From assembly GCA_963763495.1 (NCBI GenBank), contig CAVXOY010000015.1, positions 38,574-102,573 on the forward strand: 64,000 nucleotides of DNA, written 5' to 3'. Under the pieces are notes generated by a model. The model searched no databases and was not told where the DNA came from. It saw nothing but the letters and a program-made list of their open reading frames with translations. Position numbers and translations under genes: made by a program. Source of the DNA: an uncultured Chloroflexia bacterium (lineage in GTDB: Bacteria; Chloroflexota; Dehalococcoidia; DSTF01; JALHUB01). Below, one piece after another: positions 36,897-51,240 of the stretch; the stretch's first letter is position 1; each line of letters starts with the position of its first letter.

Positions 36897-37877
36897 GAGA
36901 CGCGGAGATCACTGTGATCTCACTGCGTCGATCGGAGCATCGACGGCCCGAAGCGTTCCAGCGACGTGGCTATCTCAAATGCCAGCATTCGATCAGGCGC
37001 CAGCATTTCCGCAGCGACAGCTGTCGCCTTGGCGCCAGGCTCTGGATGCAAGAACTGCATAGCCAGCTTCGAGGATCAGACGTGTCTAGGCTCGGCACTG
37101 GTCTGATTGCTGCCAGAGTGCGGCGCGAGATCCCACATACCGGGTTACGCTCGCAACTCAGCATGTGTGCTCAGCTACTTCGAGATGATGGCGCTAAGGT
37201 CTCGATGACGGATACCACTGAGGAGCGGAGAGGTCGAGCACTGCTTCAAGGAAGCGTGTCAGGGCCCGCATTCCGCGATCGTCCCCGAGTGACGGTGATG
37301 ACGGCTGCTGCAGAAGATTCTGTTGAAACTGCTATGGCGACTCGTCACGTTGCGGCATGCACGATTATCGGGCTCACGCTGCCCGACGTGGAACTGACGG
37401 GCTGAGCCAGTCACATCGGCTGCATCGAGCTCACTAGTGGAAGGCGAAATCTTGCACATTCATCCGGGCATCTGCGCGTCCAGATGGCGATGAAGAACCA
37501 CTTCCAGCGCATATCTTGGCATCGCTGCGGCAGTGGCTTTCCCAGTGCAGAAACGTAGCGCTCCTGTAGGTGTGACTTCGACTCGAAGGGTGCCGAGCTC
37601 AACCGATGCGTAGAACGGCGTCTGCGCTGACGTACCGGCATCACTGGCATGGACATTCCGCACGGCACCGATTCGCCTAGGGGCGCTATTGGTCACCGCG
37701 AGTGGGCGTGTCAGCCGTGCCTGCCGAAGCCCCATGACATAGGATGCAAGGCCGCTCGTCGAACGTGAACAGCACCTGGGCGCGATTGTCCGACGCCATC
37801 AGTCATGCTAGAGCGACGGCGTAAGCACTGCCTAGCAGCACTTCCGCGTATAATGGTCGCTAAGGAGGAGCAGGAAG

Positions 37878-39104
37878 ACGGCGAGAACTTATCCCACCGC
37901 AGAGCCCGTCGAGCGGGCGTATCTGGTCGCTGTCGAGCTGAAGGGCGCGACGGCGAACGGGCGGTCGTTCAGCAGCCAAAGCTCGCTCGATGAGCTGGCG
38001 CTCCTGGCGGATACGGCGGGCGCCCGCGTCGTCGGCCGCACCGTCCAGAAGCTGGAGACGCCGCATCCCGCCCACTACGTCGGCAAGGGCAAGCTGGCGG
38101 AGATCAAGGCGGAGCGCTCCCACATCGACTACTCGCTCGTCATCCTCGACGACGAGCTCAGCCCCTCGCAGCAGCGCCACTTGGAGGACGCCCTTCAGGT
38201 CAAGGTCCTCGACCGCACGGCGCTCATCCTCGACATCTTCGCCCGGCGGGCCCAGACGCGGGAGGGCCGCCTGCAGGTGGAGCTGGCGCAATCGGAGTAC
38301 CTGCTGCCGCGCCTCGCCGGCCAGTGGAGCCACCTGGAGCGGCTGGAAGGCGCTATCGGCACGCGCGGCCCCGGTGAGACGCAGTTGGAGACTGACCGGC
38401 GGCTGGTGCGCACGAAGATCGGCCGCCTGAAGAAGCAGATCGAGGCGGTGCGAAGGCAGCGGGCCCTTCATCGACGGCGGCGGGCGCGACAGGGTGTGCC
38501 GGTGGTGGCGCTGGTCGGCTACACGAACGCCGGCAAGAGCACCCTCATGCGGACGCTCTCGGGGGCGGACGTCTTCACGGAGGACAAGCTCTTCGCCACG
38601 CTGGACCCGCTCACGCGGCGCATATCGCTTCCCGGCAGGCAGACCGTCCTCCTGTCCGACACCGTGGGCTTCATCCAGAAGCTGCCGACGCAACTGGTGG
38701 CGGCGTTCCGGGCGACGCTGGAGGAGCTGGAGGCGGCGGATGTCCTGGTGCACGTAGTAGACATAACACATCCGGACGCGGCGCTGCAGAGTCAGACGGT
38801 GCAGGACACGCTGGCCGACCTCGGCCTGGCGGAGAAGCCCTGCATCAGCGTGCTGAACAAGGTGGACCTGCTGACGCGACGCGACGGCTCGCCCGTCGAG
38901 GGGCTGGAAGAGCTGCGGGAGCAAGCGCTCGCTCTGAACGATGACCGGCCGGACGCGCTGCTGATCTCCGCCGAGCAGGGCTGGGGACTGGCAGAGCTTC
39001 TAGGGCGGATAGAAGCCGTCCTTCAGATGGGGGCAGGAGTGCTGGCAGCGCCGGAGTCGCGCTGGACGCAGCCGGAGCCGAAAGCGCTGGAGCCGCACGG
39101 CTAG
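37878..39104 (+). CDS. hflX: GTPase HflX; N-terminal half missed by the ORF track, apparent ACG start
   Basis: The frame is open from 37854 (SLDELALLADTAGA, YVGKGK, DDELSPSQQRHLE) into DRTALILDIFA, GPGETQLE, VGYTNAGKS, LFATLDP and DTVGFI. Confidence 0.93.
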   Translation, partial: TARTYPTAEPVERAYLVAVELKGATANGRSFSSQSSLDELALLADTAGARVVGRTVQKLETPHPAHYVGKGKLAEIKAERSHIDYSLVILDDELSPSQQRHLEDALQVKVLDRTALILDIFARRAQTREGRLQVELAQSEYLLPRLAGQWSHLERLEGAIGTRGPGETQLETDRRLVRTKIGRLKKQIEAVRRQRALHRRRRARQGVPVVALVGYTNAGKSTLMRTLSGADVFTEDKLFATLDPLTRRISLPGRQTVLLSDTVGFIQKLPTQLVAAFRATLEELEAADVLVHVVDITHPDAALQSQTVQDTLADLGLAEKPCISVLNKVDLLTRRDGSPVEGLEELREQALALNDDRPDALLISAEQGWGLAELLGRIEAVLQMGAGVLAAPESRWTQPEPKALEPHG

Positions 39105-40682
39105 CCGCTGGTATCCCTTATCCCCCGGCCTCTTCCTTTTGCCGGTCCCGCTGAATCAGTTCGCGCCTGCAGTATCTTGCCGGCCAGGCTCTTCGGAATC
39201 ACGTCGAGGAACTCCAGGTCGCGTATCTTCTTGAATGGCGCGACTTTCTCCTCTGCCCACGCCTGTATCTCCTCGGCGGTTGCCGACGCCCCCGGCCGGA
39301 GGACGACGAACGCCTTGGGGGTCTCGCCGCCGTCGGGCTGGCGCTTGGGGACAACGGCGACATCGAGGACAGCGGGGTGTTCCAGCAGCAGCGCCTCGAG
39401 CTCGGCGGGGGCGATCTGGTGCCCCTTGTATTTGATCATCTCCTTCTTGCGGTCGACGAGGTGAACGTATCCCTCCTCATCGACGAAGGCGATGTCGCCG
39501 GTACGCAGCCAGCCGTCGCGGGTAAATGCCTCGGCTGTCTCAATGCGCTGGCTCCAATAGCCCTTCATCACTTGGGGGCCTTTGACGAAAAGCTCGCCTG
39601 CCTCTCCCGTCGGCAACTCCTGCTCGTTGCTGAGATCAACCACCTTCTCAATCGTATCCGCTATCGGCGGCCCCACGGATCCGGCCCTTATCCTGGGGAC
39701 AGGATGGGTATTGACGAGGGGGCTGGTCTCACTCAGACCATACGCCTCGACAATCGGGCATTTGAAGCCGCGGCGCGCCTGGTCAGCCAGTTCGGCCGGT
39801 AACGGCGCGGCGCCGGAATAGATATAAGCGAAGCGAAGACATGTCGTAGGACGAGAAGCTGGGGTGGTTCAGCATGATAAGCAGGGCTGGGGGGACTGCA
39901 AACATGTCCGTCGCCTTGTGCTTCTCGATGAGAGCCATTATCTGCTCCGGGTTGAAAGAGGGCACCACGATCTGGGTAGAACCGCTGGAAAGGCCGCAGT
40001 TCATAAGGATGGTGAGGCCGTAGATGTGATAGAAGGGGAGGAACTCGACGGAGATGGTATAGGCATTCGTATAGCCGATAGTCAGGGCCTGCCGGATGTT
40101 GGCGGCAAGGTTGTAGTGGGTGAGCATCACCCCTTTGGGAAGGCCGGTCGTTCCGCCTGAGTAGGGCAGAGCCGCAAGGTCCTCCTCGGGGTTGATGTTG
40201 ACGGGCCGGGGCTCCGGCGGCGTGTCGGCGGCCCATTCCCAGAGATCTTCCAGACAGTGTACCGCCTTTAGGTTGGGGAGCTGTGGCGCAGATGCTTCGG
40301 CCACGGGCATCATGGGGCGTCCGGCCAGAAGAACAACGGCGCCGGCGTCTTCGAGCTGCTGGCAAACCTCGCGTTCTTTGTACATGGAGTTGACAGGGCT
40401 GGCAACGGCGCCGGCGTGGAGGATCCCCAGGAAGGCGACCATGTACTCGGGCGAGTTTTGGGAAAAGATAGCCACGCGGTCACCTTTGCCCACACCCTCG
40501 TTCTGGAGAAAGCGGCCGACTTTCTTGGCCCACTCATGTATCTGCCGGAATGAGTACGAGGGGCCATCAGGTGAGATGACAGCCGCCCTGTCACCGAAGC
40601 GGCCACCGCAGGCTTCGATGTAGTGGGCGAGGTTCATCTTGGGGTAGGGCTCCAGGGTCAGCCAGGGACTCGTGATAGGCAT
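39101..40682 (-). CDS. AMP-dependent acyl-CoA synthetase (4-coumarate--CoA ligase-like); frameshifts near 39790 and 39170
   Basis: YSGGTTGLPKG, LPFYHIYG, YGLSE, GPQVMKGYW, WLRTGD and DRKKEMIKYKG. Confidence 0.9.
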
Positions 40683-40852: not shown

Positions 40853-41398
40853 CTAGTCTCCCAGCAATGTGGTGTAGCCCAGATCGATGATCTCCTCCAC
40901 ATACTCAGAACGCCAGTGAGCATTGGGGACGCGCAGGCCATTCTCACGGAACCACCGGTGGTAGGACAGGTACTCTTCTTCGAGATGGCATCGCCAGGCA
41001 TCTTCCTCGGCGAACACGTCGGGGGCCACCCCTTCAAGACCTTCACCGGCATCTTCCGGGGCGATATCCAGGTCTTCCTGCCAGTAGTCGGCGAGATAGT
41101 CCAGGCAGTCTTCAAGGTCCTTGCGGCAGTCGTTCATGAGCAGGGCCATCATCCGCTCCTGATCGACAGGGGTCGCCCGGACCCGCAGTTCTTTGGCGCA
41201 AGACTCACAGAGTACCACCAGTTTGCGGGCGTCGCAGCCATCTTTGCGACTGCAATTCAGGCAGCGCGGCGCATACTCCGACGCGGTCGCCGCCCGCGAG
41301 TAGCCTACACAAGCGAGGGGTTCCAGCCGGCCGCAACGAAGGCAGGAGATGCTGGCGGCCAGCAGGTCGTTGATCGTCCTTCCCCAGTCTATCTGCAT
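40853..41398 (-). CDS. Hypothetical Cys-rich, acidic protein
   Basis: GAGG RBS before ATG 41398; CLRC, CLNC and CESC pairs; acidic C-terminal half. Confidence 0.7.
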   Translation of the reverse strand: MQIDWGRTINDLLAASISCLRCGRLEPLACVGYSRAATASEYAPRCLNCSRKDGCDARKLVVLCESCAKELRVRATPVDQERMMALLMNDCRKDLEDCLDYLADYWQEDLDIAPEDAGEGLEGVAPDVFAEEDAWRCHLEEEYLSYHRWFRENGLRVPNAHWRSEYVEEIIDLGYTTLLGD

Positions 41399-41543
41399 GT
41401 CTGCCTCAAACGGGTAGTATGGTGGTCTTGGCTCCAATGATACTATTCCCACCCAGTGTGTCAACGGCAGAGAGCGCTTGCCGGTCAGCACCGGACTGTT
41501 CCCCTAAGATTCGAAAAAACGCACTGCTGGAGCCTCGTAGGCT

Positions 41544-41572
41544 CTAATAACGGGACGCGTGTCATCCGATAA
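41544..41572 (+). promoter_or_regulatory. Putative sigma-28-type promoter of the GGDEF gene
   Basis: CTAAT-N16-TCCGATAA, 30 nt before the TTG start. Confidence 0.45.
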
Positions 41573-41601
41573 TTATGCTGACAGGGCTAGAGGAGTGATA
41601 C

Positions 41602-42489
41602 TTGGAAGCAGACAAGCTGCCGCCACGCGAAGATGACGTGTCCCCTGATGTCGGCGTTCCTGTTCCTCATGGATCGACGATCGCGGAGGACGGGCACTGG
41701 CGGGAGGCGCGAGAAGCCGCGTTGCGCAAAGTCGCCCCGGTGACAGCAACATCGAGGCAGCCTGTGGAATTGCGTGTGCTCAAGCGCTACTTGCTGGCAG
41801 CACTCGGTCTGGTCAGTATCGGCCTCTTGCTGGTAATCCTCGATGAGAGATCGCATGTCTCCCATCTAACTTCCGCCTCCGTTGTCTTGATGTTGGGCAT
41901 CATCGGCATCAGCTTTGTCGCCGTCTACCGGGCGCGCGAGGTAATGGAAGGGCTGATCCGAACGACAACCCCCACGGTCAGAGACACCGTGACCGGACTG
42001 CCGGACGAACAGTACTTCCGGCTGCGCCTGCGGGAGGAGTGCAAAAGGGTCGGCCGCTATGGGATCCCGGTATCTCTGGCGGTCATCGACGTCAATAATC
42101 TGGCATCGGTTAACGAGGCTTACGGCGATAGCTGCGGAGACGCTGTGCTGAGCCATATCGCCAGTGTGCTCGAGGCCACCAAGCGGGCATCGGACATCGC
42201 CGTCCGTCTAAGCGGAGACGAGTTCGCGCTGATCCTGCTGGAGTGCGGGAGAGATGACGCCGCTCAGTTCGTGCACCGACTGGAGCACTACGTGGCCCGC
42301 AAGCCGGCGACGGTGAGCGTCGAGACACAACCGATAACTCTGTGGATAGGCGTTACTATCGGCCTGGCGTCGGCCGCCAATGAAGACACGAGCCCGGATG
42401 AACTGCTGGCACGGGCCCGCCAGGACCTGCAGGCCGCCAAAGCCGAACGGGACGGGCGGCGGGAGCGCTGGACAAAGGCTTCCTCTTAG
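41602..42489 (+). CDS. Membrane-anchored GGDEF-domain protein (degenerate SGDEF, RxxD I-site)
   Basis: Two TM helices, then DTVTGL, VNEAYGDSCGDAVL and RASDIAVRLSGDEFALIL. Confidence 0.88.
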   Translation: MEADKLPPREDDVSPDVGVPVPHGSTIAEDGHWREAREAALRKVAPVTATSRQPVELRVLKRYLLAALGLVSIGLLLVILDERSHVSHLTSASVVLMLGIIGISFVAVYRAREVMEGLIRTTTPTVRDTVTGLPDEQYFRLRLREECKRVGRYGIPVSLAVIDVNNLASVNEAYGDSCGDAVLSHIASVLEATKRASDIAVRLSGDEFALILLECGRDDAAQFVHRLEHYVARKPATVSVETQPITLWIGVTIGLASAANEDTSPDELLARARQDLQAAKAERDGRRERWTKASS

Positions 42490-42526
42490 ACATCACTGCT
42501 CTCGAGACATCCCAATGACTAATCGG

Positions 42527-42560
42527 GGCCCCATCCATGAGATGGGGCCAGTTCTTTTCT
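42527..42560 (+). terminator. Hairpin terminator between the convergent GGDEF and oppC genes
   Basis: GGCCCCATC-CATGA-GATGGGGCC followed by AGTTCTTTTCT. Confidence 0.6.
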
Positions 42561-42624
42561 GTCCGCCGGCAAATATGCAGGGTGCGGGTCGCGCGGTGCT
42601 TAGCGCAGAATCTCGTCCGAGTGG

Positions 42625-43530
42625 CTAATGACGGATGCGCGGGTCGAGGGCGTCGCGCAAGCCGTCGCTGAGGAAGGTGAAGCTAAGCATCACCACCGCG
42701 ATGGCAATCGTCGGCGCTAGCACAACGTGGGGATAGGCGAATATCGCCTGATAACCGTCCTGGACCATTGAGCCCCAACTCGGCAGCGGCGGCGTTACGC
42801 CGATGCCGATGAAGCTGAGAGACGCCTCAGCGAAGATCGCCTGCGGCACCCCAAATGCTACGGCGACGATGACCGGCCCCAGGCAGTTTGGCAGAAGATG
42901 ACGCAAAGCGATCCGCACGTCGTTGGCGCCAAGGGAACGCGCCGCTAGGGCAAAGTCATGCTCCTTGAGAGAGAGGAGCTGGGCTCGCACGAGGCGGGCG
43001 ACTGTCGTCCACTGCACGAGGGCTATGGCGAATATGATCATCAGCAGGCTGCCGCCAAAGACAGCCCGCAAGAGGATGATGAACAGAAGGTCGGGGAAGG
43101 CGTAGGCAACGTCTGTAAGGCGCATGAGGAGGTTGTCCAGCAGCCGGCCTCCCAGCGCCGCGACTGTCCCCACAGTGAGTCCCAAGGCAAGCACGATTAC
43201 CTGAGTCACCACTCCCACAGACAGGGATACGCGAGCCCCCTGGAGGAGACGGCTCAGGATGTCACGGCCGAGAGCATCCGTCCCCAACCAGTGAGCGCTG
43301 CTTGGCCCCTGATAGATAACATCGTAGTCCTGGTGCGCGTAGTGATGGGGAACAAAGAACGGCCCAATAAGCGCCGCCCCGGCGAAGAGAAGAATGACGA
43401 AAGCCCCCGCTGCCGCCAGTCTGTTGTTCCGGAGCAGACGCCGCCATAGATCCGTGCGCGGCGATTGCCGGTCGGTTACAGGCGCAAGGTCTTCTGTCTC
43501 GACCGCCGGGATAAGCGGTCCGCCTCTCAT
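42625..43530 (-). CDS. Peptide ABC transporter permease (OppC/DppC)
   Basis: HWLGTDALGRD, ARVSLSVG, ARSLGA..RIALRHLLPN, EASLSFIG and DGLRDALDPR. Confidence 0.93.
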   Translation of the reverse strand: MRGGPLIPAVETEDLAPVTDRQSPRTDLWRRLLRNNRLAAAGAFVILLFAGAALIGPFFVPHHYAHQDYDVIYQGPSSAHWLGTDALGRDILSRLLQGARVSLSVGVVTQVIVLALGLTVGTVAALGGRLLDNLLMRLTDVAYAFPDLLFIILLRAVFGGSLLMIIFAIALVQWTTVARLVRAQLLSLKEHDFALAARSLGANDVRIALRHLLPNCLGPVIVAVAFGVPQAIFAEASLSFIGIGVTPPLPSWGSMVQDGYQAIFAYPHVVLAPTIAIAVVMLSFTFLSDGLRDALDPRIRH

Positions 43531-43539
43531 GGCGTCCTC

Positions 43540-44457
43540 CTAGCCGTAGCGGATGCGGGGGTCAACCACCGCATAGAGCATATCAACGGCCAGATTCACA
43601 ACGGCGACGATGAAGGCATAGAAAATCGTCGCGCCCATGATCAGGCCGTAGTCTCGGGCGAACACGCCTTGGACAAAGAGCCGGCCGGTCCCCGGTATCG
43701 AAAAGAAGCTCTCGACGATGAACGATCCAGTCACCAGACTGACGGCTATCGGGCCGGCGACGGTGAGAATAGGAATGAGGGCGTTTTTCGTCGCGTGACG
43801 CAGGAGTACCACCTGCTCCCGCAAGCCCTTCGATCTCGCGGTGAGGATGTACTCCTGGCCCAGCACCTCAAGCATGCTGGCGCGGGTGATGCGAGCTATG
43901 TAGGCGACCGGTAGCGTAGCCAATGCTATGGCCGGCATGATCGCCTGCTTCGGGCTTCCCCAACCCCCAGTGGGCAGCCAGTGGAGGTGGACGGAGAAGA
44001 TAACTACCAGAAGCACTCCCAGGACGAATGTAGGTGTACTAGCGGCGCTGGCGGAGATGATTGAGCTTGCGCGATCGAGAACGCTGTTCTGCCGCAGAGC
44101 AGCAACCATACCCAAGGTGAGCCCCAGACACATGGCAACAGTAAAGGCCAGCAGTCCCAGAGTGGCTGTAGTCGAAAACCCACTCCGCAGGAGATCGGTA
44201 ACAGGGCGGCCCTGATTGGTGTAGGAGATGCCTAGGTCGCCGCGGAGAGCGTTCCCGATGAAGGTCAGGAATTGCTGCCACAGGGGCTGGTCCAGGCCGT
44301 ACTTGTGATTGAGATTGGCGACAGTTACCGGATCGAGAGGCTTATCACTGTCCCACGGTCCACCCGAGACAGCGTGCATGAGCAAGAAGGTGACAAGGGC
44401 GACGGCGAAGAGAACCGGCCCCATGTAGAGGATGCGTCTGAGAAGATAGCCAGCCAT
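43540..44457 (-). CDS. Peptide ABC transporter permease (OppB/DppB)
   Basis: KYGLDQPLWQQF, GDLGIS, EYILTARSKGL, HATKNA, VESFFSIPG.G and DPRIRY. Confidence 0.93.
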   Translation of the reverse strand: MAGYLLRRILYMGPVLFAVALVTFLLMHAVSGGPWDSDKPLDPVTVANLNHKYGLDQPLWQQFLTFIGNALRGDLGISYTNQGRPVTDLLRSGFSTTATLGLLAFTVAMCLGLTLGMVAALRQNSVLDRASSIISASAASTPTFVLGVLLVVIFSVHLHWLPTGGWGSPKQAIMPAIALATLPVAYIARITRASMLEVLGQEYILTARSKGLREQVVLLRHATKNALIPILTVAGPIAVSLVTGSFIVESFFSIPGTGRLFVQGVFARDYGLIMGATIFYAFIVAVVNLAVDMLYAVVDPRIRYG

Positions 44458-44481
44458 CGCTAGTCGTCACCATTGGAGGAG

Positions 44482-44516
44482 AGGCCGGCCCGGAGGCTAG
44501 TCCACCGGGCCGGCCT
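44482..44516 (-). other. GC-rich hairpin between oppA and oppB (mRNA-stabilising or attenuating)
   Basis: AGGCCGGCCCGG / CCGGGCCGGCCT 12-bp stem with no U tract. Confidence 0.55.
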
Positions 44517-44524
44517 AGAAGTGT

Positions 44525-46236
44525 CTAGTGTTGGACGATGTAGGTCTGCGTCAAGAACAGTTCACCGTCAAGCCCCGCATCCATCCCTGTCAGGATGAGG
44601 CTCTTGACGTACGGCTTGACAAGGCGGACCCGCTCGCGATAACTGACGAATATCGCCGCAGCGTCGCTTAATCAGCACTTGCTGGGCCTGACTCCACAGC
44701 GCCAAACGCTTTTCAGGGTCAGGTTCAGCGATTGCCTGCTGCACGAGAGTGTCGAACTCGGCATTGCTGTAGCCGGAGAGGTTGCTGCCACCGGTGCTCC
44801 CGAAGTTCTGGGGGAGCAGACTGTCGGGGTCAGGATAGTCAGCACCAAGCCCTATCGGTACGATCATGAACTGACCCTGCATGATCGTGGCAGAGAACGC
44901 CCGCGGCTCCAGTGGCTGGAGTTCTACTTTGACACCGAGGTTCTCCTCAAACTGTCCCTGCGCGAACTCAGCTCGCAGCCGGTTGGCGCCGACATCGGGG
45001 AATTCAATCGTCACGCTGGGCATTGCGTCGGCACTGTAGCCTGCCTCTTCAAGAAGCTGCTTCGCCCCTTCAGGATTGTAGGCCATCTCCTCGCCCAGGT
45101 CGGGGTCGTAGCCCGCCGTCCCGGGCGGAATCAGGCTGTAGGCAACCTCGCCGACGCCAAACTGCACCTTGTCGACGAAAGCCTCTCTGTCCATAGCCAT
45201 GGCGAACGCCTGGCGAACCTTCGGATCGTCGAACGGCGGCGCATTGACGTTGAACTCGTAGGCAAAGGTGCCCATGTCGACAGACCGCACTAGCTGCTGG
45301 CTCAGTTCGGAATCGCCTTCGGCAGCACCGATGTTGGGAGGCGGCACCATTACCACGTCAAGCTCGTTGTTCAGGTAGGCGGCGTAGGCGGCATTGGGGT
45401 CGCCGATCATCTTGAGTACAAGCTTCTGCAGCTTGGGTTGATCCCCGTACCAGTAAGGGTTGGGCGTAAGGGTCATGTGGTCGTTGTGGGCCCACTCGCT
45501 CAGCACAAAGGGGCCGCTGCTGACGAGCTTCCCCGGCTCTGTCCAGCTATCTCCGAGTCCTTCCACGATGTCCTGGCGGAGAGGGTACATAGGCCAAATA
45601 GCAGCGACATAGACGAATGTGTAGCGCGGCTGGACGAGAGTCACTTTGAGGGTGTAGTCATCCACCGCTTCGACTCCGACAGCGTCTCTGAGTTGAGAGA
45701 GCGTAGCTTCGTCGACCGGCTGAGGGTCTGCCGGGTTGCCCATCGCCATGGTGTATTCCGCGGCACCCTGAATGTCGAAGTACATTGGAGCATAGGGAGA
45801 GCCGGTCATGAGGATCGAGTAGGCGCTTCACGCTGTACTCGATATCGGCGGCGGTAATGGGCTGGCCGTCGCTCCATTTGGCGTCCTCACGCAGCTTGAA
45901 AGTGTAGGTGAGGCCGTCATCGGAGATGCCGCCGTTGGTGTGCGACGGAACCTCACTGGCGAGCGCCGGCACAAGGCTCAGATTCTGGTCAAAGCTGAGT
46001 AGGCCGCTGTAGAGCTGTCGAATGACGCCGATAGAGACGCCATCCATCGCGAGATTGGGGTCGATGGTCTCCGGTTCGTTGCCAAGGTTGAGCCGGAGTT
46101 CCTGGACAGGAGCCAGTTCCTCGGCGGAGGGCTTCGTCTTCCCGTCGTCACCGCAAGCGGATGAGAAGACTGCGGCCAAGATCGCAGCTGTCCCCGCCAC
46201 CAGCAACCAGAGCTTCGATTTCGATGGTATGTTCAT
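44525..46236 (-). CDS. Peptide ABC transporter substrate-binding lipoprotein (OppA family 5); frameshifts near 45810 and 44670
   Basis: Lipobox AVFSSAC, EPETIDP, DGLTYTFKLR..AKWSDG, SSGPFVL and DPKVRQAFAMAMDR. Confidence 0.9.
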
Positions 46237-46280
46237 GATCCTACCTTTCCCCTAGGTAAGCGGAAGCGGAAAGAGCTTGC

Positions 46281-46823
46281 TTACCGACTGGCAAGAGCGC
46301 TATCGGCCGTCGAAGGTGCCAAAAGCGCTCCCAACGCTTTCTCTGCCCGGTGGCGACCAACGCTGGCAGGCGCGACCCAGTGCTGGATCTGCAGGCCGTT
46401 TTCGAGGGCCAACAGCAAATCGGCTGTTATTCCCGGAGCAGCCGCCACGCCTCTTATCTTTCCTGCGATCTCCCGCAGTGCCTCGCGGCGAGCCGCATAG
46501 TACTCGGACAAACGCTCCCTGATTAGCTGTTTGCGGCCGGCTTGTTCCCAGAGCTCCATCAGGAGGCCGCCCCAGCCTTCACTACGAATGGTTCCATTCC
46601 CGTGGCTGCTACCCACCGTCTCTTCGACCACTTGGAGAAGCAACGACTCTTTGCCGCGAAAGTGGAAATAGAAGCCCCCTTTGGAGTAGCCGGCCACCCG
46701 ACAAATATCATCCACGCTGGCGCCCTCGAACCCCTTGCGGGTAAGGACCTGCAGCGCCGCCTTTAGCAGCTTTGTTCGGCCCTCCTCATGCATCCGACGT
46801 TTGGAGACACGTTGGGTTACCAT
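46281..46823 (-). CDS. TetR/AcrR-family regulator
   Basis: LLKAALQVLTRKGFEGASVDDICRVAGYSKGGFYFHF HTH. Confidence 0.92.
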   Translation of the reverse strand: MVTQRVSKRRMHEEGRTKLLKAALQVLTRKGFEGASVDDICRVAGYSKGGFYFHFRGKESLLLQVVEETVGSSHGNGTIRSEGWGGLLMELWEQAGRKQLIRERLSEYYAARREALREIAGKIRGVAAAPGITADLLLALENGLQIQHWVAPASVGRHRAEKALGALLAPSTADSALASR

Positions 46824-46845
46824 CGCGAACTACCGCCTATGATTG

Positions 46846-46874
46846 TTATCGACTCCTGAGGAGGCTGACTTTAG
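46846..46874 (-). promoter_or_regulatory. Putative sigma-28-type promoter of the tetR-oppABC unit
   Basis: Minus strand CTAAAGT..., CTAAA-N16-GTCGATAA, 22 nt before the ATG. Confidence 0.55.
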
Positions 46875-46963
46875 CGCCGCGGCTATCTGGCTGTCCCTGC
46901 GAACGCTAGAGGGGCGAAATGCCCGGATCGCAGGGTCAGATGCGATGCCCAGCAGTGCAGGGC

Positions 46964-46991
46964 TTGACACAGGCTGATTTGATGCGATAAT
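46964..46991 (+). promoter_or_regulatory. Putative sigma-70-type promoter of the small W4 ORF
   Basis: TTGACA (46964-46969), 16 nt, GATAAT (46986-46991), with TGn. Confidence 0.45.
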
Positions 46992-47085
46992 ACATACCGA
47001 CGGGTCGGTATCTCAGCGAGGCAAGCAGAGAGGAACACCAATCCCTGACCCTGACCCCGAATCGGATATTGCATGGAGGCGAAGC

Positions 47086-47184
47086 ATGAAGAAACTGCTG
47101 GCTATTGCACCGGCTGCCCTGGTTGTAGCGGCTCTGGCCGCTACCCAGGCCCTACCACTCCTCAGAATCTGGTGGTGGTGGTAG
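47086..47184 (+). CDS. Small 32-aa peptide MKKLLAIAPAALVVAALAATQALPLLRIWWWW (not in the ORF track)
   Basis: GGAGG RBS at 47075-47079, 6 nt before ATG; signal-peptide-like N-terminus; four consecutive TGG codons then TAG. Confidence 0.65.
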   Translation: MKKLLAIAPAALVVAALAATQALPLLRIWWWW

Positions 47185-47461
47185 GAGCAAGTCACAATAG
47201 GAGATCCAGTGTCTACCCGCTGTCCAGGGGTCTCTGTTGCTTCGGTGAGAGAGACCTCATGGTGGCGGGCAAGAGCGAAGATACCGGCTCGTCAAGACGT
47301 CCCACCAAGTAGCTAGCGTCGACCCGCTCGACGGTGGTTACATTCGGGGACGTTTCGTCTCCTCTCTGCTCTGCCTCGTTGCCCTTACTTGGGCATCATG
47401 CCGACATCAATCGCCGTAGTGGCATACCGTTTGAGACCGGGCTGGTCGATTTAGCCCTAAC

Positions 47462-48955
47462 CTATGCCGCTACTCTCTCCTCCAGGCCTTCCGCCCAGCC
47501 ACCTACGCACTCCAAGAATGCCTCCACCACCTGAGGATCAAACTGAATACCGTTGTTGTTTATGATCTCATCACGCGCCTGCTGCCAGTCGAGGGCGCGC
47601 CGGTAAGGCCGGTTAGAGGTCATCGCATCGAAGGCGTCAGCGACGGCGAATACGCGAGAACCGAGAGGTATCTCCTTGCCCTTAAGCCCTAGGGGGTAAC
47701 CCTTCCCGTCATACCGTTCGTGGTGAGAGTAGACGATGTCGGCGGCTTTCTCCAAGAACTTGACGTCCTTCAGCATCTCATAGCCGATGGCGGGGTGCTT
47801 CCGCATCTCCTGCCATTCTTCAGCGGTTAGAGGTCCCGCTTTGTTCAGGATGGAGTCGGCAACGCCGATCTTGCCAACGTCGTGTAGCAGCGAGGCCCGC
47901 TCGATGTCCAGCCATTCGTCGCTACCATCCTTTATCCCAAGGCGAAGCGCCATGTCCATTGTGTAGACGGAGACGCGGCTGGAGTGACCGCCGGTTTCGC
48001 TATCCCGGGCATCGAGCGCGGCAGCGAGTGCCTCCAAGGTAGCATCATACGTTTCCTTCAAACGTGAGGTCATGGCGAGGATCTCGCGGTTAGCTCGTTC
48101 TAGCTGATCGTTCTTCCTCTTCAAGACAGCGACATTGCGGGCCGTCTTGTCCACGTACTGCTTGATCGCGAGGCGCATCATGAAAGGCGGGGCCACGAAC
48201 GCCAGTAGGCCGGTCGCGCCCAGCGCCCGATAGGAAAGAGCACAGGCCAAACCGAGCAATCCGAAGACCATGTAATGGGGGAAGAGCCACTGGAACTTCT
48301 CCTGCCAAATGGCCCAAGGCCTCTGTCGCGTGGCCAAGCTGGCGACACCGGTCACCAAGAAGCTGCTGACGCCGTAGCTGACGGTCGCCGCGACGAGAGA
48401 AGCGACGACCACCTGCGGCGACACCTTGATGGCGTTGTTATCGATCAGTCCCCAAAGCACAGCAGCGGCAAGGCCATCGGCGAGGATGGCGCTGCCGACG
48501 TTGAACAGGAAGCGGTAGGAAATGACGTTTCGGGGCAAATGTAAGCTGAGGGCGGTGATCGGAGCAGCAACAACCACGCCCGATGGCCCGTAGAGAACGG
48601 CGATGGCAAAGAGGCAGATGAAACTGACGGAGACTTTGCTGTCGCTGTAGACAAGTATGCTCAGGCGATCAGCGATGGCAGCAAGCGTCGTCAGCAGGAG
48701 CAAGCCGACAAGACCAGAGTGAGGGAGGCGGGGCGCGTAGACTAGCACCACCGCCATTCCCGCCAGAAATGCCGTGACGGACAGCAGCGAGGCCTGCCAG
48801 GGTAATGTGGGCGGCGCCATTCCCTCAGCGCGAGGCTCGCGCTCAGGCATGTGCGTACCTGCGCCTATGTCAGGGCGCACGGCGACGGACAGCGGTCGTT
48901 CAATACTGAGGCCGTTGTGGTTTTCGATCGGCTCTGCCCTGTCCTGCATAGGCAT
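47462..48955 (-). CDS. HD-GYP c-di-GMP phosphodiesterase with multi-TM (MASE-like) sensor domain
   Basis: About 7-8 TM segments, a coiled coil, ALDARD, LLHDVGK, HPAIG, HHERYDGKGYPLGLKG and ADAFDAMTSNRPYR. Confidence 0.93.
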   Translation of the reverse strand: MPMQDRAEPIENHNGLSIERPLSVAVRPDIGAGTHMPEREPRAEGMAPPTLPWQASLLSVTAFLAGMAVVLVYAPRLPHSGLVGLLLLTTLAAIADRLSILVYSDSKVSVSFICLFAIAVLYGPSGVVVAAPITALSLHLPRNVISYRFLFNVGSAILADGLAAAVLWGLIDNNAIKVSPQVVVASLVAATVSYGVSSFLVTGVASLATRQRPWAIWQEKFQWLFPHYMVFGLLGLACALSYRALGATGLLAFVAPPFMMRLAIKQYVDKTARNVAVLKRKNDQLERANREILAMTSRLKETYDATLEALAAALDARDSETGGHSSRVSVYTMDMALRLGIKDGSDEWLDIERASLLHDVGKIGVADSILNKAGPLTAEEWQEMRKHPAIGYEMLKDVKFLEKAADIVYSHHERYDGKGYPLGLKGKEIPLGSRVFAVADAFDAMTSNRPYRRALDWQQARDEIINNNGIQFDPQVVEAFLECVGGWAEGLEERVAA

Positions 48956-49090
48956 TTCCGGTGCCGCTCAGTTACTTCTTCGGGCTGACGTATTCACCTT
49001 TAGTGCAACATTCGGCGCCCGCCGATAGGCATGCGCGTCGAACGGAACATCCTAACGTCATCTCAACTGCGAACTCCGCTCTCAGGGGTA

Positions 49091-49118
49091 TTATCGGCAG
49101 ATGCCGGAGGTCAAGTAG
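49091..49118 (-). promoter_or_regulatory. Putative sigma-28-type promoter of the HD-GYP gene
   Basis: Exact GCCGATAA -10 at 49098-49091; weak -35 (CTACT) 15 nt upstream. Confidence 0.4.
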
Positions 49119-49190
49119 GGTACCCCTTTTCGGGACCGGAGGCAGGTCAGTGATATGCTTCGCACATCGTCGCGAGCCAATCTCCCAAGA

Positions 49191-49916
49191 CTAGGCGGCC
49201 TCTTCAAGCTGCGGTTGAAGCTCTCGGCGGAGCAGGCAGAGGATCCGCTTGTGGAGCTGGCAGACTCGCGACTCGGAGAGTCCGAGAAGCTCGCCGATCT
49301 CATGAAACGGCCGTGACTCCCCATAGCGCAGTTGAATGATCGCCTTGTCCCGCTCGCTAAGAGATGAGACAGCGTCGACCAAGAAACCGAGGGCTACCTT
49401 GTGTTCGGTGGCCTGGGCGGGGTCTGTCAGGGCATCCTCATCGGCCAGATCCCAGCCGTAGTTGCCACCGTGACTGGGCCGGCACTCTAGAGAATACTCA
49501 AGGGATACGAGCCGGGAGTTGGTGCGCCACTTGAGCTGCTGCAGCCGGGCAGAGCTGATACCCATCCGAAAAGCGATCTCTTTGTGGGTAGGCCAGCGGC
49601 CGAGCTGGACAGCCAGCTCCTGTGAGGCCTGTTCGATCTCCTTTGCGCTTCGCCGCAGTGAGCGAGAGAGCGGGTCCTGCTTGCGCACGGCATCGAGTAT
49701 GGAGCCCCGAATGCGGCGAATGGCGAAGCTGGCAAAAGTCGTGCCCCGATCAGGGTCGTAGGCATCGACCGCCTGGATCAGTCCTTCCATACCGTAGCCA
49801 ATCGCGTCGTCCTTTTCCACGCCGGCGGCACCACCGCCATCAGCGGACATGCGGTTGACCACGAAAGCTACCAGCGGTAGATGCTTGGTTATCAATTGTT
49901 CTCGGTTCTTTGCCAT
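49191..49916 (-). CDS. RNA polymerase sigma factor, FliA/WhiG (sigma-28) family
   Basis: LITKHLPLV, GLIQAVDAYDPDRG..F..FA..RIRGSILDAVR, LVSLE, and region 4 EIGELLGLSESRVCQLH. Confidence 0.92.
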   Translation of the reverse strand: MAKNREQLITKHLPLVAFVVNRMSADGGGAAGVEKDDAIGYGMEGLIQAVDAYDPDRGTTFASFAIRRIRGSILDAVRKQDPLSRSLRRSAKEIEQASQELAVQLGRWPTHKEIAFRMGISSARLQQLKWRTNSRLVSLEYSLECRPSHGGNYGWDLADEDALTDPAQATEHKVALGFLVDAVSSLSERDKAIIQLRYGESRPFHEIGELLGLSESRVCQLHKRILCLLRRELQPQLEEAA

Positions 49917-49955
49917 GTTATGCCCCCCAGGGTTGGCGAACACTCGCCGGAGTAC

Positions 49956-49990
49956 AAAAAAGCCGTCGTCGGTAGGTCACCGACGACGGC
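49956..49990 (-). terminator. Intrinsic terminator in the sigma-28 gene leader (riboswitch expression platform)
   Basis: Minus strand GCCGTCGTCGGT-GACCT-ACCGACGACGGC-TTTTTT. Confidence 0.88.
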
Positions 49991-50047
49991 AAGTGGTCGA
50001 GAAGGTTCTTGATAATGAACTGCGAGCGCTTTTTCGCTCCAGCAGAG

Positions 50048-50142
50048 GCCTTCGGTAGCCCAGCAACCCTATCCTTCCACGGAAGGACTATAGGTCGGAG
50101 GCTTTGCGTCCCCCTCTTTCGAAGGGTTTGCCTTTGTCGGTG
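50048..50142 (-). ncRNA. c-di-GMP-I (GEMM) riboswitch aptamer
   Basis: Minus strand AAGGCAAACCCTTC-GAAA-GAGGGGGACGCAAAGCCTCCGACCTA...ATAGGGTTGCTGGGCTACCGAA matches the class I consensus (GGCAAAC, GAAA tetraloop, GGACGCAAAGCC, ACCGA). Confidence 0.92.
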
Positions 50143-50562
50143 CCCGTCTTTACTGGTTAAGGTACTCACCGGCACCCTGGCCGGTGGGTGAACCCAACTG
50201 GATCACCAAAGCAATAACGAGGAAATGCGAAGAACATATCAGCGCCCGGCAAAGATCTTCAGAACAATTTGCGGAGCCTGGGCAAGTGCTATCACAAACA
50301 CAAAGGGGTGTTGGTTCCTACTTGGCGATAAGCGGAGGTATCTGCTATTCTTTGGCAGCGGAGGTGGGGGCTTGACGCTTTGGCTAGGATTGCAGGGCTA
50401 GCTCCAGTTGTCTGACAGTCCCCTTGCACAGAGCCGCAGTTGTCCATACCTCGGCGGCGGGCCAACCGCGCGTGCTACTTGAACCGTCGGGCAGTCGGAA
50501 AACCCTGAGAGAGGGCTGGCGCAGCGCCTTTTCCGGCCGACAATTACTTGGAGTATCTATCG

Positions 50563-51240
50563 TTGAACAGAACGATTCCCGCAAAGCGCCAGCAGAAGGA
50601 GCAGACACGAGCTCGCCTAGTGGAGGCCGCTCTCCGTGTCTTTGCCCTTCAGGGATACGACCACGCCACAGTAGATGAGATATCTCTGGCAGCCGGACAC
50701 TCTAAGGGCGCCTACTACTTCCATTTCGATTCCAAAGAGGGGATATTCCTAGAACTGCTGTCGACCTGGACAGCGGAGCAGACGCGACGGCTGCACACAT
50801 TTGAGGATGCCTCGGTCCCTCCGGCCATTGCCCTGCTCGAAACCCTTCAGTCTCTTCTTCGGTACGACGATAGGGACCCCCACTGGCTGTCGTTACTCCC
50901 CGAGTTCTGGGCTCAGGGTCACCGAAACGACAAGGTTCACCAGTTGCTGCAAAAAGCCTATGATCAATGGCTGAAGCTTCTCACAGACGCGTTCGAGAAG
51001 GCTGAGTCGGCCCGCCTTATCTCCTTGGCCGTACGTCCGGAGGCGGCGGCCAGTCTCGTCCTCGCCCTGCACGATGGCCTGGTAGTGCACCGTCGCCTGC
51101 GCCTGGCGGCCAACAGACCACCAGCTTTGCCCCAGACGCTCGGCGTCCTCATCTCTATGCTGACCACGTCAGCGGAACAGCGGCCAACCACGGAGATTTC
51201 TCCGCCGGTGGCACGGCGCACAGTCAGACGCACGCACTAG
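50563..51240 (+). CDS. TetR/AcrR-family regulator
   Basis: TRARLVEAALRVFALQGYDHATVDEISLAAGHSKGAYYFHF; TTG 50563 follows GGAG (the track start 50548 is also possible). Confidence 0.92.
   Translation: MNRTIPAKRQQKEQTRARLVEAALRVFALQGYDHATVDEISLAAGHSKGAYYFHFDSKEGIFLELLSTWTAEQTRRLHTFEDASVPPAIALLETLQSLLRYDDRDPHWLSLLPEFWAQGHRNDKVHQLLQKAYDQWLKLLTDAFEKAESARLISLAVRPEAAASLVLALHDGLVVHRRLRLAANRPPALPQTLGVLISMLTTSAEQRPTTEISPPVARRTVRRTH

Follow-up and report, generated by a model that had tools for sequence, protein, structure and literature searches.

A putative c-di-GMP feedback cassette with a riboswitch-gated sigma-28-type factor in flagella-less Dehalococcoidia-type bacteria

A group of genes in the stretch of DNA analysed here (the window, 64,000 nucleotides, to which all positions refer) appears to form a c-di-GMP feedback cassette, in which a riboswitch gates a sigma-28-type sigma factor and a TetR-family regulator, TetR2, represses a micropeptide gene. 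Taken as a whole, we consider this explanation rather likely, and comparison of related loci leaves the feedback circuit well supported, if unproven. The parts and their co-conservation are established. The gene order TetR2, c-di-GMP-I riboswitch, FliA/WhiG-type sigma gene, MASE9-type HD-GYP gene and convergent micro-ORF is kept in five families of one order, whose members are uncultured Dehalococcoidia-type bacteria without flagella, and in many loci of the order TetR1 and a GGDEF gene come next after this core. All items listed in a sequence-only reading of the window could be located, at or close to the positions it gave, and a synteny search showed the riboswitch, sigma gene, HD-GYP gene and upstream TetR gene to be co-conserved throughout the order. 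The interpretation offered there stood with regard to co-conservation, the OFF switch, the promoters and translation of the peptide; its inclusion of Opp in the system and its secreted four-tryptophan (W4) peptide as a general feature did not.

The sigma gene and its riboswitch leader

The sigma gene (49191-49916, minus strand) is of the FliA/WhiG family. Its best NCBIfam model is FliA_WhiG (TIGR02479), on which it scored 184.6 bits, 5 bits under the cut-off of 189.6, and its nearest solved structures in the PDB are Streptomyces WhiG (6PFV) and E. coli FliA (6PMI). Orthologues were present in 61 of 61 relatives. Among the genomes of the order examined, FlhA was absent from all 31 and FlgM from all 21, which indicates that the sigma factor is not flagellar.

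Upstream lies the aptamer of a c-di-GMP-I riboswitch (50050-50141, minus strand; RF01051, 71.6 bits; RF03167, 66.6 bits) of the canonical G20/A47 type. In 28 of 28 relatives, drawn from five families, an aptamer precedes the sigma orthologue; 0 of 18 genomes from other orders, where only a 40% homologue exists, have one at this place. The "GGC" variant label returned by cmscan was rejected, as the ligand-contact bases are canonical and the diagnostic position of all 29 orthologous aptamers, which read GCAAAGC there, is the canonical A.

The expression platform contains an intrinsic terminator (49962-49990, minus strand) with a 13-bp stem and six T residues. Families f1, f3 and f4 have equivalent terminators behind the aptamer; none was detected in f5 by the criteria applied, so the mechanism may differ in that family. 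Complementarity between the terminator's 5' arm and the 5' portion of the aptamer yields pairing energies of -18 to -28 kcal/mol, with z from -2 to -6 versus shuffled sequences. In f3 the pairing sequences differ yet remain complementary, with one U-A for C-G exchange; within f1, true covariation of the antiterminator is scarce because both strands are conserved. With its terminator and competing antiterminator the leader has the appearance of an OFF switch, in keeping with the original proposal that low c-di-GMP permits sigma expression, and it is from this architecture that we infer the direction of switching. Ligand binding would lock the aptamer's 5' half, upon which the 13-bp terminator would form and transcription would stop. 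Without ligand, the aptamer 5' segment CACCGAC-AAA-GGCAA would pair with TTGCC-GTC-GTCGGTG in the terminator 5' arm, allowing read-through into the sigma gene.

A candidate promoter for the riboswitch-sigma transcript was located at 50215-50240 (minus strand; ECF-like, GATATG-N15-CGTTA). The bipartite motif, about 70 nt 5' of the aptamer, is kept in all families and reads TGTAAC-N~16-CGTTA in the others. From known ECF consensus sequences, we infer that this promoter is served by an ECF sigma factor.

Sigma-28-type promoters and the c-di-GMP enzymes

The gene directly downstream of the sigma gene in 37 of 40 loci encodes a membrane HD-GYP protein, a putative c-di-GMP phosphodiesterase (47462-48955, minus strand; HD_5, 3.5e-37) with HD, HHE and GYP motifs and about 6-7 transmembrane helices at its N-terminus. 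This N-terminus had no Pfam match in the genome's own protein; orthologues matched MASE9 (PF20972) at 26-29 bits (cut-off 24.3), and we assign the sensor domain to a divergent MASE9 type. A second membrane protein, a putative diguanylate cyclase (41602-42489, plus strand; Pfam GGDEF, 1.7e-31), is encoded beside the cassette at the majority of f1 and f4 loci. It has two transmembrane helices and an RxxD I-site five residues upstream of its active site, which reads SGDEF in place of GGDEF and leaves its cyclase activity uncertain.

Sigma-28-type promoters were found before the GGDEF gene (41544-41572, plus strand; pattern match CTAATA-N15-TCCGATAA), TetR1 (46846-46874, minus strand; pattern match CTAAAG-N15-GTCGATAA) and the HD-GYP gene (49091-49118, minus strand; CTAC-N16-GCCGATAA), the last with an exact GCCGATAA and a -35 element that is weak in this genome (CTAC). 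The general motif before the three genes is CTAAA-N15-16-GCCGATAA. Relatives keep these boxes in the same places: CTAAA(t/c)-N14-15-G(C/T)CGATAA before the orthologous GGDEF gene in f1, G(A/T/C)CGATA(A/C) before TetR1, with CTAAA in close relatives, and (G/T)(C/T)CGATA(A/C/T) in 21 of 21 aligned sigma-HD-GYP spacers. The promoter footprints are thus established, with boxes that stay conserved while the rest of the spacer is saturated. In 15 genomes of the order, the strict motif occurred 39 times versus 2 for a reversed control, an excess of about 20-fold, and the earlier claim of sigma-28-like promoters before the GGDEF, TetR-Opp and HD-GYP genes is more than a chance resemblance.

The enrichment was seen in this order only; outside it, the counts were 23 versus 16 (ten genomes of other orders with a single 40% homologue each) and 69 versus 32, the reversed pattern being an imperfect control as judged from the AT-richer out-group genomes. 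In the genome studied, 10 of 14 matches are intergenic, and three of these roughly ten copies are grouped around the gated sigma gene. Downstream genes that recur across relatives encode an ECF sigma factor (in two genera), TadE, GGDEF, GGDEF-EAL and HD-GYP proteins and an S8 protease. It is conceivable that the neighbourhood was kept by descent alone, the motif matches being non-functional promoters and the genes independent of one another, and the evidence is indeed entirely comparative and drawn from lineages known only from MAGs. The conservation of boxes within saturated spacers, the 20-fold excess, and the joint loss of HD-GYP and micro-ORF and co-occurrence of TetR2 with its operator described below make this highly improbable.

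The promoter consensus of the cassette equals the one published for WhiG, T(A/C)AA-N16-GCCGATAA (bioRxiv 10.64898/2026.01.14.699351). A second FliA/WhiG paralogue is, however, present in all 61 genomes, and the copy in this genome (C22:28455-29162) scored 191.1 bits on the family model, above the cut-off, versus 184.6 for the gated sigma factor. Were this paralogue to read the GCCGATAA-type promoters, the riboswitch would control only the sigma-HD-GYP read-through, the regulon of the gated factor would be a different one and no sigma-mediated loop would exist. Besides the scores, the fact that Actinomycetota have two WhiG clades whose consensus sequences resemble each other speaks for such an arrangement, which we nevertheless regard as unlikely, given the clustering of motif copies at the gated sigma gene and their enrichment only in the order that has this gene. 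We favour the gated sigma factor as the probable reader of these promoters.

The micro-ORF, its operator and the Opp genes

The micro-ORF (47086-47184, plus strand; 32 codons; 47075-47184 with its Shine-Dalgarno sequence) reads MKKLLAIAPAALVVAALAATQALPLLRIWWWW and is preceded at 6 nt by GGAGG, a Shine-Dalgarno sequence present in all copies. Positional homologues, convergent on the HD-GYP gene in every locus, occur in 35 of 37 loci and encode peptides of either roughly 27-34 or 6-8 residues. In the long forms, which are membrane-type, a basic N-terminus is combined with a hydrophobic core and an AxA-like motif. It is difficult to see how such peptides and the short, cytoplasmic ones could share one target site. 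Purifying selection on the peptide is established, with pN/pS of 0.23-0.51 in seven groups and saturated flanks; together with the universal Shine-Dalgarno sequence, this bears out the suggestion that the peptide is translated, which we consider very probable. One genome shows a change from TGG to TAG.

A sigma-70-type promoter precedes the micro-ORF (46964-46991, plus strand; TTGACA-16-TG-GATAAT), with 11 of 12 consensus matches and an extended TG, and relatives keep TTGACA and ATAAT at the same place. Directly 3' of the -10 box is a perfect 18-bp palindrome, ATACCGAC-GG-GTCGGTAT (46994-47011), the only copy in the 2.17-Mb genome at up to two mismatches. TetR2 (50548-51240, plus strand; Pfam TetR_N and TetR_C_6) is divergent from the riboswitch-sigma unit, and an orthologue lies 5' of the riboswitch in all families but f2 and some f5. 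The palindrome was present in 25 of 25 loci with TetR2, ten of which lack TetR1, versus 0-1 of 8 without TetR2. This footprint suggests that the palindrome is likely the operator of TetR2 and that TetR2 likely represses the micro-ORF. TetR1 (46281-46823, minus strand; TetR_N, 7.5e-15), which opens the TetR1(-opp) unit, occurs in 19 of 37 loci.

Downstream of TetR1 are oppA, oppB and oppC (42625-46236, minus strand; Pfam SBP_bac_5, BPD_transp_1 and OppC_N). Comparison with its intact counterpart in a same-genus relative places a +1 frameshift in OppA near 45808, and no OppD/F gene is adjacent, such ATPases being encoded elsewhere in the genome. Opp genes adjoin the cassette in only 4 of 37 loci. 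From this distribution we place Opp outside the conserved system, as a lineage-specific insert, and the counts and the frameshift argue against the idea that the importer is part of the circuit. Nor does the peptide gene belong with Opp signalling, as had been supposed: it has its own sigma-70 promoter and a putative operator whose occurrence follows that of TetR2, and the gene itself goes with HD-GYP, not with Opp. Micro-ORF and HD-GYP were both lost in three genomes that have no full-length HD-GYP orthologue elsewhere, and the micro-ORF is absent where HD-GYP is disrupted.

The small ORF could still encode a secreted signalling peptide that is re-imported by Opp and bound by an intracellular TetR, in place of receptors of the Rgg or PlcR type, tuning the loop in a quorum-sensing-like manner. 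The features of the long forms fit this, as do the sigma-28 promoter of TetR1-opp and the Trp-rich C-termini, a feature of streptococcal XIP peptides. In all four Opp loci the micro-ORF is of the long kind (4 of 14 long versus 0 of 20 short), but three of the four are close relatives and the association is confounded by relatedness. Moreover, 33 of 37 loci lack Opp, the peptide persists in six loci without any TetR, and 20 of 35 intact micro-ORFs encode only 6-8 residues without a signal peptide. In most long forms Pro directly follows the AxA-like motif, and Pro at +1 of a cleavage site should hinder signal peptidase I. We judge this explanation improbable; what remains of the proposed secreted W4 peptide is a real micro-ORF under selection, its four-tryptophan tail being peculiar to this genome.

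The micro-ORF might also work as an RNA or through its translation, either as a dual-function sRNA or as an element that senses translation and affects the convergent HD-GYP mRNA, with a peptide that has no target. Its invariable convergence with HD-GYP is compatible with this, as are a purine-rich stretch conserved in the 5' UTR, a conserved 3' region in genus g2 with alternative pairings (GGAGGGA / TCCCTCC / GGGGAG) overlapping the stop codon, and the 6-codon length typical of leader peptides. Yet the 6-7-codon forms are constrained at the amino-acid level (FRVxW kept, pN/pS 0.31-0.51) while using the Arg codons CGT, CGG, CGC and CGA and all four Val codons, and no gene follows on the same strand. 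A terminator right after the ORF in many loci keeps antisense overlap small, and the C-terminal Trp is not universal (GVRLR, GIRVR), which argues against Trp-sensing attenuation. A role as RNA is thus quite unlikely, and we prefer a functional peptide.

The proposed circuit

In the proposed circuit, T(A/C)AA-N16-GCCGATAA-type promoters would be recognised by RNA polymerase carrying the sigma factor. Within the cassette, three such promoters would serve the genes of the MASE9-HD-GYP phosphodiesterase, of TetR1 (together with opp in loci that have it) and of the membrane cyclase with its I-site. The few targets elsewhere would include an ECF sigma/anti-sigma pair, further GGDEF and EAL proteins, TadE pilus genes and secreted proteases. 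Given an OFF switch and sigma-driven promoters, low c-di-GMP would raise sigma; sigma would raise the phosphodiesterase and c-di-GMP would fall still lower, a positive feedback that is potentially switch-like. As the same type of sigma factor would drive the sensor-controlled cyclase, the circuit would have a negative arm besides the positive one, acting as a brake or reset. Co-conservation, the OFF-type leader and the conserved promoters make the loop from low c-di-GMP through sigma and phosphodiesterase to lower c-di-GMP reasonable. Of the earlier model, in which sigma induces phosphodiesterase and importer, the positive feedback is retained, the cyclase arm is added and the importer, not being conserved, drops out. 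The micro-ORF would be a separate, strongly expressed and translated gene with a sigma-70 promoter, a consensus Shine-Dalgarno sequence and, in many relatives, its own terminator; TetR2 would repress it through the genome-unique palindrome, and the peptide would most likely act on, or with, the HD-GYP membrane sensor domain.

The components are known individually, and their arrangement has not previously been described. A reasonable reading of these comparisons is that the cassette represents an order-specific form of regulation, in which the c-di-GMP level would be coupled to a non-flagellar sigma factor of the sigma-28/WhiG type that acts back on c-di-GMP.

Gene content and conservation of the cassette

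A sequence-only reading of this locus had proposed a circuit of peptide signalling, c-di-GMP and a sigma-28 factor, and every gene that it named was found in the window sequence. The source metagenome-assembled genome (2.17 Mb, 23 contigs, 84% complete), of which the window is C15:38574–102573, has relatives from peat and soil. An orthologue of the sigma gene, 53–78% identical, was present in 61 of 61 relatives (five families, one order), with a c-di-GMP-I riboswitch 100–240 nt upstream in all 28 loci for which upstream DNA was available. Comparison of the 40 longer loci by tblastn revealed a shared gene order: a divergent TetR regulator gene (TetR2), the riboswitch and sigma gene, an HD-GYP gene, a convergent small ORF, an optional second TetR gene (TetR1) with a GGDEF gene, and a zinc-ribbon-like gene. 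The HD-GYP gene directly follows the sigma gene in 37 of these loci. Outside the order, the best sigma homologues reached at most 42% identity, and a riboswitch adjoined the homologue in none of 18 genomes from other orders of the class, which makes the cassette an order-level invention. The proposed co-conservation was therefore borne out, within one order, for the riboswitch, sigma, HD-GYP and small ORF, but not for the Opp permease, which was found in only four loci (this genome, two relatives, G001 and G006, and one genome of family f3).

The zinc-ribbon-like protein (212 residues, 40853–41491(−), starting MQIDWDK...CxRCG) has no Pfam family, is 53–81% identical across the order and always flanks the cassette; its gene has a near-consensus sigma-70 promoter at 41437–41464. 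Farther out, an AMP-binding enzyme at 39101–40682(−) is divided into two ORFs (299 and 191 residues), which may reflect a frameshift or misdrawn ORF boundaries. As seen from relatives, the long minus-strand ORF at 37860–38924 (region 37860–39104) is the shadow of a plus-strand HflX-type GTPase gene.

The HD-GYP protein (497 residues, 47462–48955(−)) matched HD_5 at 3.5e-37, with LLHDVGK and SHHERYDGKGYP supplying the HD, HHE and GYP motifs, and is a predicted c-di-GMP phosphodiesterase. Its N-terminal membrane module matched neither MASE9 (PF20972) nor any other Pfam family, even at E=10; the MASE9 assignment was recovered only via orthologues, which are 41–62% identical to the window protein over this region and match PF20972 at 26–29 bits (cut-off 24.3). 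The GGDEF protein (two TM segments, 41602–42489(+)) has a Pfam GGDEF domain (1.7e-31) with the active-site motif SGDEF, not GG(D/E)EF, and an RxxD I-site. Enzymes with an SGDEF motif have been reported to be active.

The putatively riboswitch-gated sigma factor and its predicted promoters

The sigma factor (241 residues, 49191–49916(−)) has regions 2, 3 and 4 in Pfam and scored 184.6 bits on the FliA_WhiG model TIGR02479, 5 bits under the NCBIfam trusted cut-off of 189.6; this was by far its best family, the runner-up being SigBFG at 106.8. Its closest solved relatives in the PDB are Streptomyces WhiG (6PFV, 128 bits) and Escherichia coli FliA (6PMI, 120 bits). A flagellar role of the FliA kind was rejected, because FlhA was absent from all 31 and FlgM from all 21 genomes of the order searched, and the protein is predicted to be functionally WhiG-like, not FliA-like. 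A second FliA/WhiG paralogue is encoded on another contig of the same genome (C22:28455–29162(−)); it scored 191.1 bits, above the TIGR02479 cut-off, is 39% identical to the gated sigma and is present in all 61 relatives.

The riboswitch upstream (50050–50141(−)) scored 71.6 bits on the RF01051 (GEMM-I) covariance model (threshold 35) and 66.6 bits on RF03167 (threshold 59); the name c-di-GMP-I-GGC that cmscan assigned to it is a product of clan competition by E-value. The aptamer has, in CAAAGGCAAACC and GACGCAAAGCC, what we take to be the canonical c-di-GMP-I ligand contacts, a G at the G20 position (AAAGGCAAAC) and an A at the A47 position (GCAAAGCC; numbering after the Vc2 structure). A GGC variant (RF03167) with altered ligand was rejected: the diagnostic G (ACGCGAAGCC) is absent, and at the column where the GGC-model consensus has G, and where the window mismatches that model, all 29 orthologous aptamers have A. 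Given this A and the RF01051 score, we treat the riboswitch as a predicted ordinary c-di-GMP-I sensor.

A terminator with a 13-bp stem and T6 (49962–49990(−)) lies between aptamer and sigma gene. Terminators were found downstream of the aptamer in families f1, f3 and f4, and none was detected in f5 by the criteria used. The terminator's 5' arm and its flank (TTGCC-GTC-GTCGGTG) form the complement of the 5' part of the aptamer (CACCGAC-AAA-GGCAA), with duplex energies of −18 to −28 kcal/mol (z of −2 to −6 against shuffled arms); in f3 the pairing sequences have changed and are still complementary, including one exchange of U-A for C-G. Since this aptamer segment holds nucleotides of the ligand-binding core, ligand binding should free the terminator, and the riboswitch should act as an OFF switch.

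About 70 nt upstream of the aptamer, a bipartite motif resembling ECF-sigma promoters occurs in all families (TGTAAC or GTTATG, ~16 nt, CGTTA; here GATATG...CGTTATTG; window 50160–50240(−), and the same place in loci L012–L040 of relatives). It is followed by a hairpin with compensatory changes (CACCGGC...GCCGGTG here; CCAGC...GCTGG and CCGGCC...GGCCGG in relatives). A genome scan for GT(T/A)A(T/C)(G/A)-N14–18-CGTTA gave eight matches, none ahead of a sigma gene.

Four further c-di-GMP-I riboswitches are present in the source genome, which is a small one: at C15:102694–102785(+), ~120 nt past the window end, at C15:124443–124541(+) and 124691–124810(+), and at C13:67546–67635(+). One heads a membrane GGDEF cyclase gene, whose orthologue in the relative G009 carries a sigma-28-type promoter in its place; two in tandem lie ahead of a secreted repeat protein gene, and one precedes an S8 (fervidolysin-like) protease gene.

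The sigma-28-like promoters that had been noticed before the GGDEF, TetR1 and HD-GYP genes were confirmed as boxes conserved in relatives. In the spacer between the sigma and HD-GYP genes, a (G/T)(C/T)CGATA(A/C/T) box is present in 21 of 21 aligned loci, surrounded by diverged sequence, with a CTA-type element 16–17 nt upstream. The GGDEF gene in f1 has CTAAA(t/c)-N14–15-G(C/T)CGATAA, and TetR1 here has CTAAAG-N15-GTCGATAA, with related boxes in other loci. The cassette motif equals the WhiG promoter consensus T(A/C)AA-N16-GCCGATAA (bioRxiv 10.64898/2026.01.14.699351).

TAAA-N15/16-GCCGATAA promoters are conserved around the gated sigma gene and enriched in the order, and either of the two paralogues could use them. 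Across 15 genomes of the order, the strict pattern TMAA-N15–17-GCCGATAW was matched 39 times and its reversed control twice. The corresponding counts were 23 and 16 in ten genomes from other orders whose only homologue is 40% identical, and 69 and 32 in ten genomes without any homologue. Enrichment confined to this order favours the gated sigma, rather than the C22 paralogue, as the reader of these promoters; it is no proof, as the second paralogue is present in each genome.

With a looser pattern, 10 of 14 matches in the source genome are intergenic, three of them inside the cassette. Predicted targets in this genome and its relatives include TadE pilus genes, GGDEF, GAF-degenerate GGDEF and GGDEF-EAL genes, and genes for a LuxR-type regulator, an S8 protease, a CAP-domain protein and a glycosyltransferase-20 enzyme. 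An ECF sigma/anti-sigma pair is a predicted target in this genome and in the relative G005; with a sigma-28-type promoter ahead of that ECF sigma gene, a cascade or loop between the two kinds of sigma factor is possible. In two genera, a strict sigma-28-type promoter is immediately followed by a gene for a protein of ~65 residues without a Pfam family (L103 on G005:C14 and L093 on G008:C118), and the two proteins are homologous. One region comprising a sigma-28-type promoter, a glycosyltransferase-20 (trehalose-6-phosphate-synthase-like) gene and a pyrophosphate-energised pump recurs with small differences on three contigs of the source genome (C9:~14876, C11:~2969 and C12:~2957), which probably means that the bin mixes strains or that the region is truly triplicated.

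The small ORF and its predicted control by TetR2

A strongly signalled ORF recurs with unchanged position and orientation in 35 of the 37 loci with HD-GYP (here 32 codons, 47086–47184(+)). Its presence tracks HD-GYP. The three genomes without an HD-GYP gene beside the sigma gene lack the small ORF as well as any full-length HD-GYP orthologue elsewhere, and the ORF is also absent from one genome with a disrupted HD-GYP gene; in one further genome it contains a single TGG-to-TAG change. GGAGG stands 6–9 nt ahead of the start in every copy. The pN/pS ratio is 0.23–0.51 in seven groups, with flanking DNA near saturation, and FRVxW is kept while its codons vary (Arg CGT/CGG/CGC/CGA, Val GTG/GTC/GTA/GTT).

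The ORF has a long form (27–34 residues) and a short form (6–8 residues). Long forms, some of them annotated automatically as 'hypothetical protein', consist of a basic N-terminus, one hydrophobic helix and a short basic, aromatic tail (...QAPALLFWWWG, ...YAPTILGVRRWW, ...QAPIILGIRWGWW); the window's own peptide was not in the protein collection searched. Short forms read MKK(Y/M/F)HW(F/W) in genus g2 of f1, M(T/V)FR(V/I)xW in f4 and xxDWGxx in f2, have no membrane segment and make up more than half of the loci that bear the ORF. What had been taken for a secreted-looking peptide ending in four tryptophans is thus a conserved ORF, but the WWWW tail was found in this genome alone, the closest relative ending ITWRW, and many forms have only 6–8 residues. 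Proline directly after an AxA-like motif hinders signal peptidase I. Most long forms have a proline at this place and may therefore remain membrane-bound instead of being released.

In many loci a hairpin terminator stands directly behind the ORF, which suggests that the gene yields a short dedicated mRNA. A leader peptide for Trp attenuation was rejected: no same-strand gene lies downstream, the terminator follows the ORF immediately in many loci, and the number of C-terminal Trp codons ranges from 0 to 4 (GVRLR and GIRVR). In genus g2 (L044–L048, L067, L068), a GGAGGGA box overlapped by the ORF's stop codon can pair with TCCCTCC ~35 nt downstream, and TCCCTCC has GGGGAG as an alternative partner; ~100 nt downstream there is also a conserved GCCGACCGTCT box. 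This 3' structure may be a translation-sensitive element or a bidirectional terminator shared with the HD-GYP gene.

The small-ORF promoter is a near-consensus sigma-70 type (TTGACA-16-TG-GATAAT), and a perfect 18-bp palindrome, ATACCGAC-GG-GTCGGTAT, abuts its −10 box. At up to two mismatches the palindrome has a single copy in the genome, and a wider TetR regulon was rejected on this ground. Both TetR1 (46281–46823(−)) and TetR2 (50548–51240(+)) have a TetR_N domain. A palindrome of the same type was found in 25 of 25 loci with an upstream TetR2, against 0–1 of 8 without, and it occurs in ten loci without TetR1; TetR2 is therefore the likely repressor of the small ORF, through this predicted operator. 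The structural matches of TetR2, confined to generic TetR and gamma-butyrolactone-receptor proteins, give no clue to a ligand. Since the ORF persists in six loci without any TetR, its function is independent of such a regulator.

The opp genes here (oppC, oppB and oppA, 42625–46236(−)) form an incomplete set. No OppD/F ATPase genes adjoin them, oligo_HPY ATPases being encoded only elsewhere in the genome, and compared with the intact gene of a same-genus relative, oppA is interrupted near 45808 (45800–45815(−)) by a +1 frameshift. The frameshift lies outside any homopolymer run and may mark a real pseudogene or an assembly error. Peptide secretion followed by Opp import, as first imagined, fits only the four loci with Opp, all with long forms; three of these come from closely related genomes, and the OppA of the present genome is broken.

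Comparison with known systems and a working model

The best-supported reading, built from sequence comparison, is a WhiG-like sigma factor repressed by c-di-GMP that would drive a phosphodiesterase (positive feedback), a product-inhibited cyclase (a negative arm) and a small regulon of envelope, pilus and signalling genes. The small ORF would be gated by TetR2, translated, and accessory to the MASE9-HD-GYP enzyme. The most economical idea is that its peptide acts on the HD-GYP membrane sensor, an idea that must account for one job being done both by forms that have a membrane segment and by forms that lack it. We consider it rather doubtful that the ORF encodes a dedicated MASE9 partner, that is, a basic, aromatic peptide of 6–34 residues binding the membrane module and setting phosphodiesterase activity, with a timing given by TetR2.

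Two other arrangements of a small protein or peptide invite comparison. MgrB, acting on PhoQ, is a small membrane protein that modulates a membrane sensor, and in streptococci Rgg/ComR-SHP/XIP signalling depends on import by Opp/Ami. The streptococcal systems share with the cassette a short ORF beside a regulator gene, an aromatic or Trp-rich C-terminus and, in some genomes, a nearby permease; here, however, the regulator is a TetR and not an RRNPP protein, Opp is missing from most loci, neither a PptAB-type exporter nor evidence of processing was found, and many peptides are too short for processing. In Clostridioides difficile, small membrane proteins are encoded behind c-di-GMP riboswitches (PMC13724677). 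Common to these, MgrB and the cassette is a tiny, hydrophobic, separately transcribed protein in a signalling circuit, and the cassette shares with MgrB-type proteins a genetic tie to a polytopic membrane sensor, here MASE9-HD-GYP. In contrast, there is no sequence relationship, a predicted TetR operator and not a riboswitch controls the peptide gene, and over half of the loci carrying it have the 6–8-residue form.

The logic of high c-di-GMP turning a sigma-28-type factor off is shared with two known systems, as is the promoter consensus with one. In C. difficile, the c-di-GMP-I riboswitch Cd1 on the flgB operon, which contains sigD, causes early termination at high c-di-GMP and thereby lowers the sigma-28-family factor SigD and its regulon (PMC6366702, PMC5386303). 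Both cases involve a class-I riboswitch by which high c-di-GMP turns such a sigma factor off (here, as predicted). There, sigD is one of many genes in a long flagellar operon, with motility and toxins as output; here, in bacteria without flagella, a monocistronic-type sigma gene has the riboswitch immediately in front of it, and the predicted regulon includes the c-di-GMP enzymes themselves, which would close a feedback loop.

The RsiG-(c-di-GMP)-sigma WhiG switch of Streptomyces and Rubrobacter turns off a non-flagellar sigma at high c-di-GMP (PMC7005675, PMC8325347; bioRxiv 10.64898/2026.01.14.699351). It has the same logic and the same T(A/C)AA-N16-GCCGATAA consensus, its WhiG (6PFV/6PFJ) is the closest solved relative, and the Rubrobacter regulon includes pilus genes, as TadE genes are predicted targets here. 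There, in Actinomycetota, the sigma is controlled post-translationally by an anti-sigma factor that c-di-GMP arms; here, control would act on RNA through a riboswitch, in Chloroflexota, and no anti-sigma gene adjoins the gated sigma gene at the locus. Our literature search found nothing relevant on sigma factors of Chloroflexota preceded by a c-di-GMP riboswitch, and no paper describing the whole cassette arrangement. The cassette is therefore predicted to differ from known systems in a riboswitch directly on the sigma gene, in non-flagellate Chloroflexota, with a regulon that includes c-di-GMP enzymes.

Besides the flagellar-operon riboswitch of C. difficile and the armed anti-sigma factor of Streptomyces, the cassette would be a third solution to c-di-GMP control of sigma-28-type factors, in which the riboswitch sits right on the sigma gene and the sigma in turn would drive the enzymes that set c-di-GMP. 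Such a decision module would be compact and self-contained, and could be reconstructed in a laboratory host. The small ORF draws attention to a family of very small, mostly unannotated proteins that have no functional name and are genetically tied to MASE9. If the MASE9-partner reading is true, the peptide would be the first ligand or modulator of any MASE9 domain, and a peptide-gated c-di-GMP phosphodiesterase within a riboswitch-sigma loop would have no described counterpart. With pilus, envelope and secreted-protease genes as its predicted outputs, the cassette gives a starting point for understanding how lifestyle is controlled in an abundant, uncultured lineage of soil and peat Chloroflexota.
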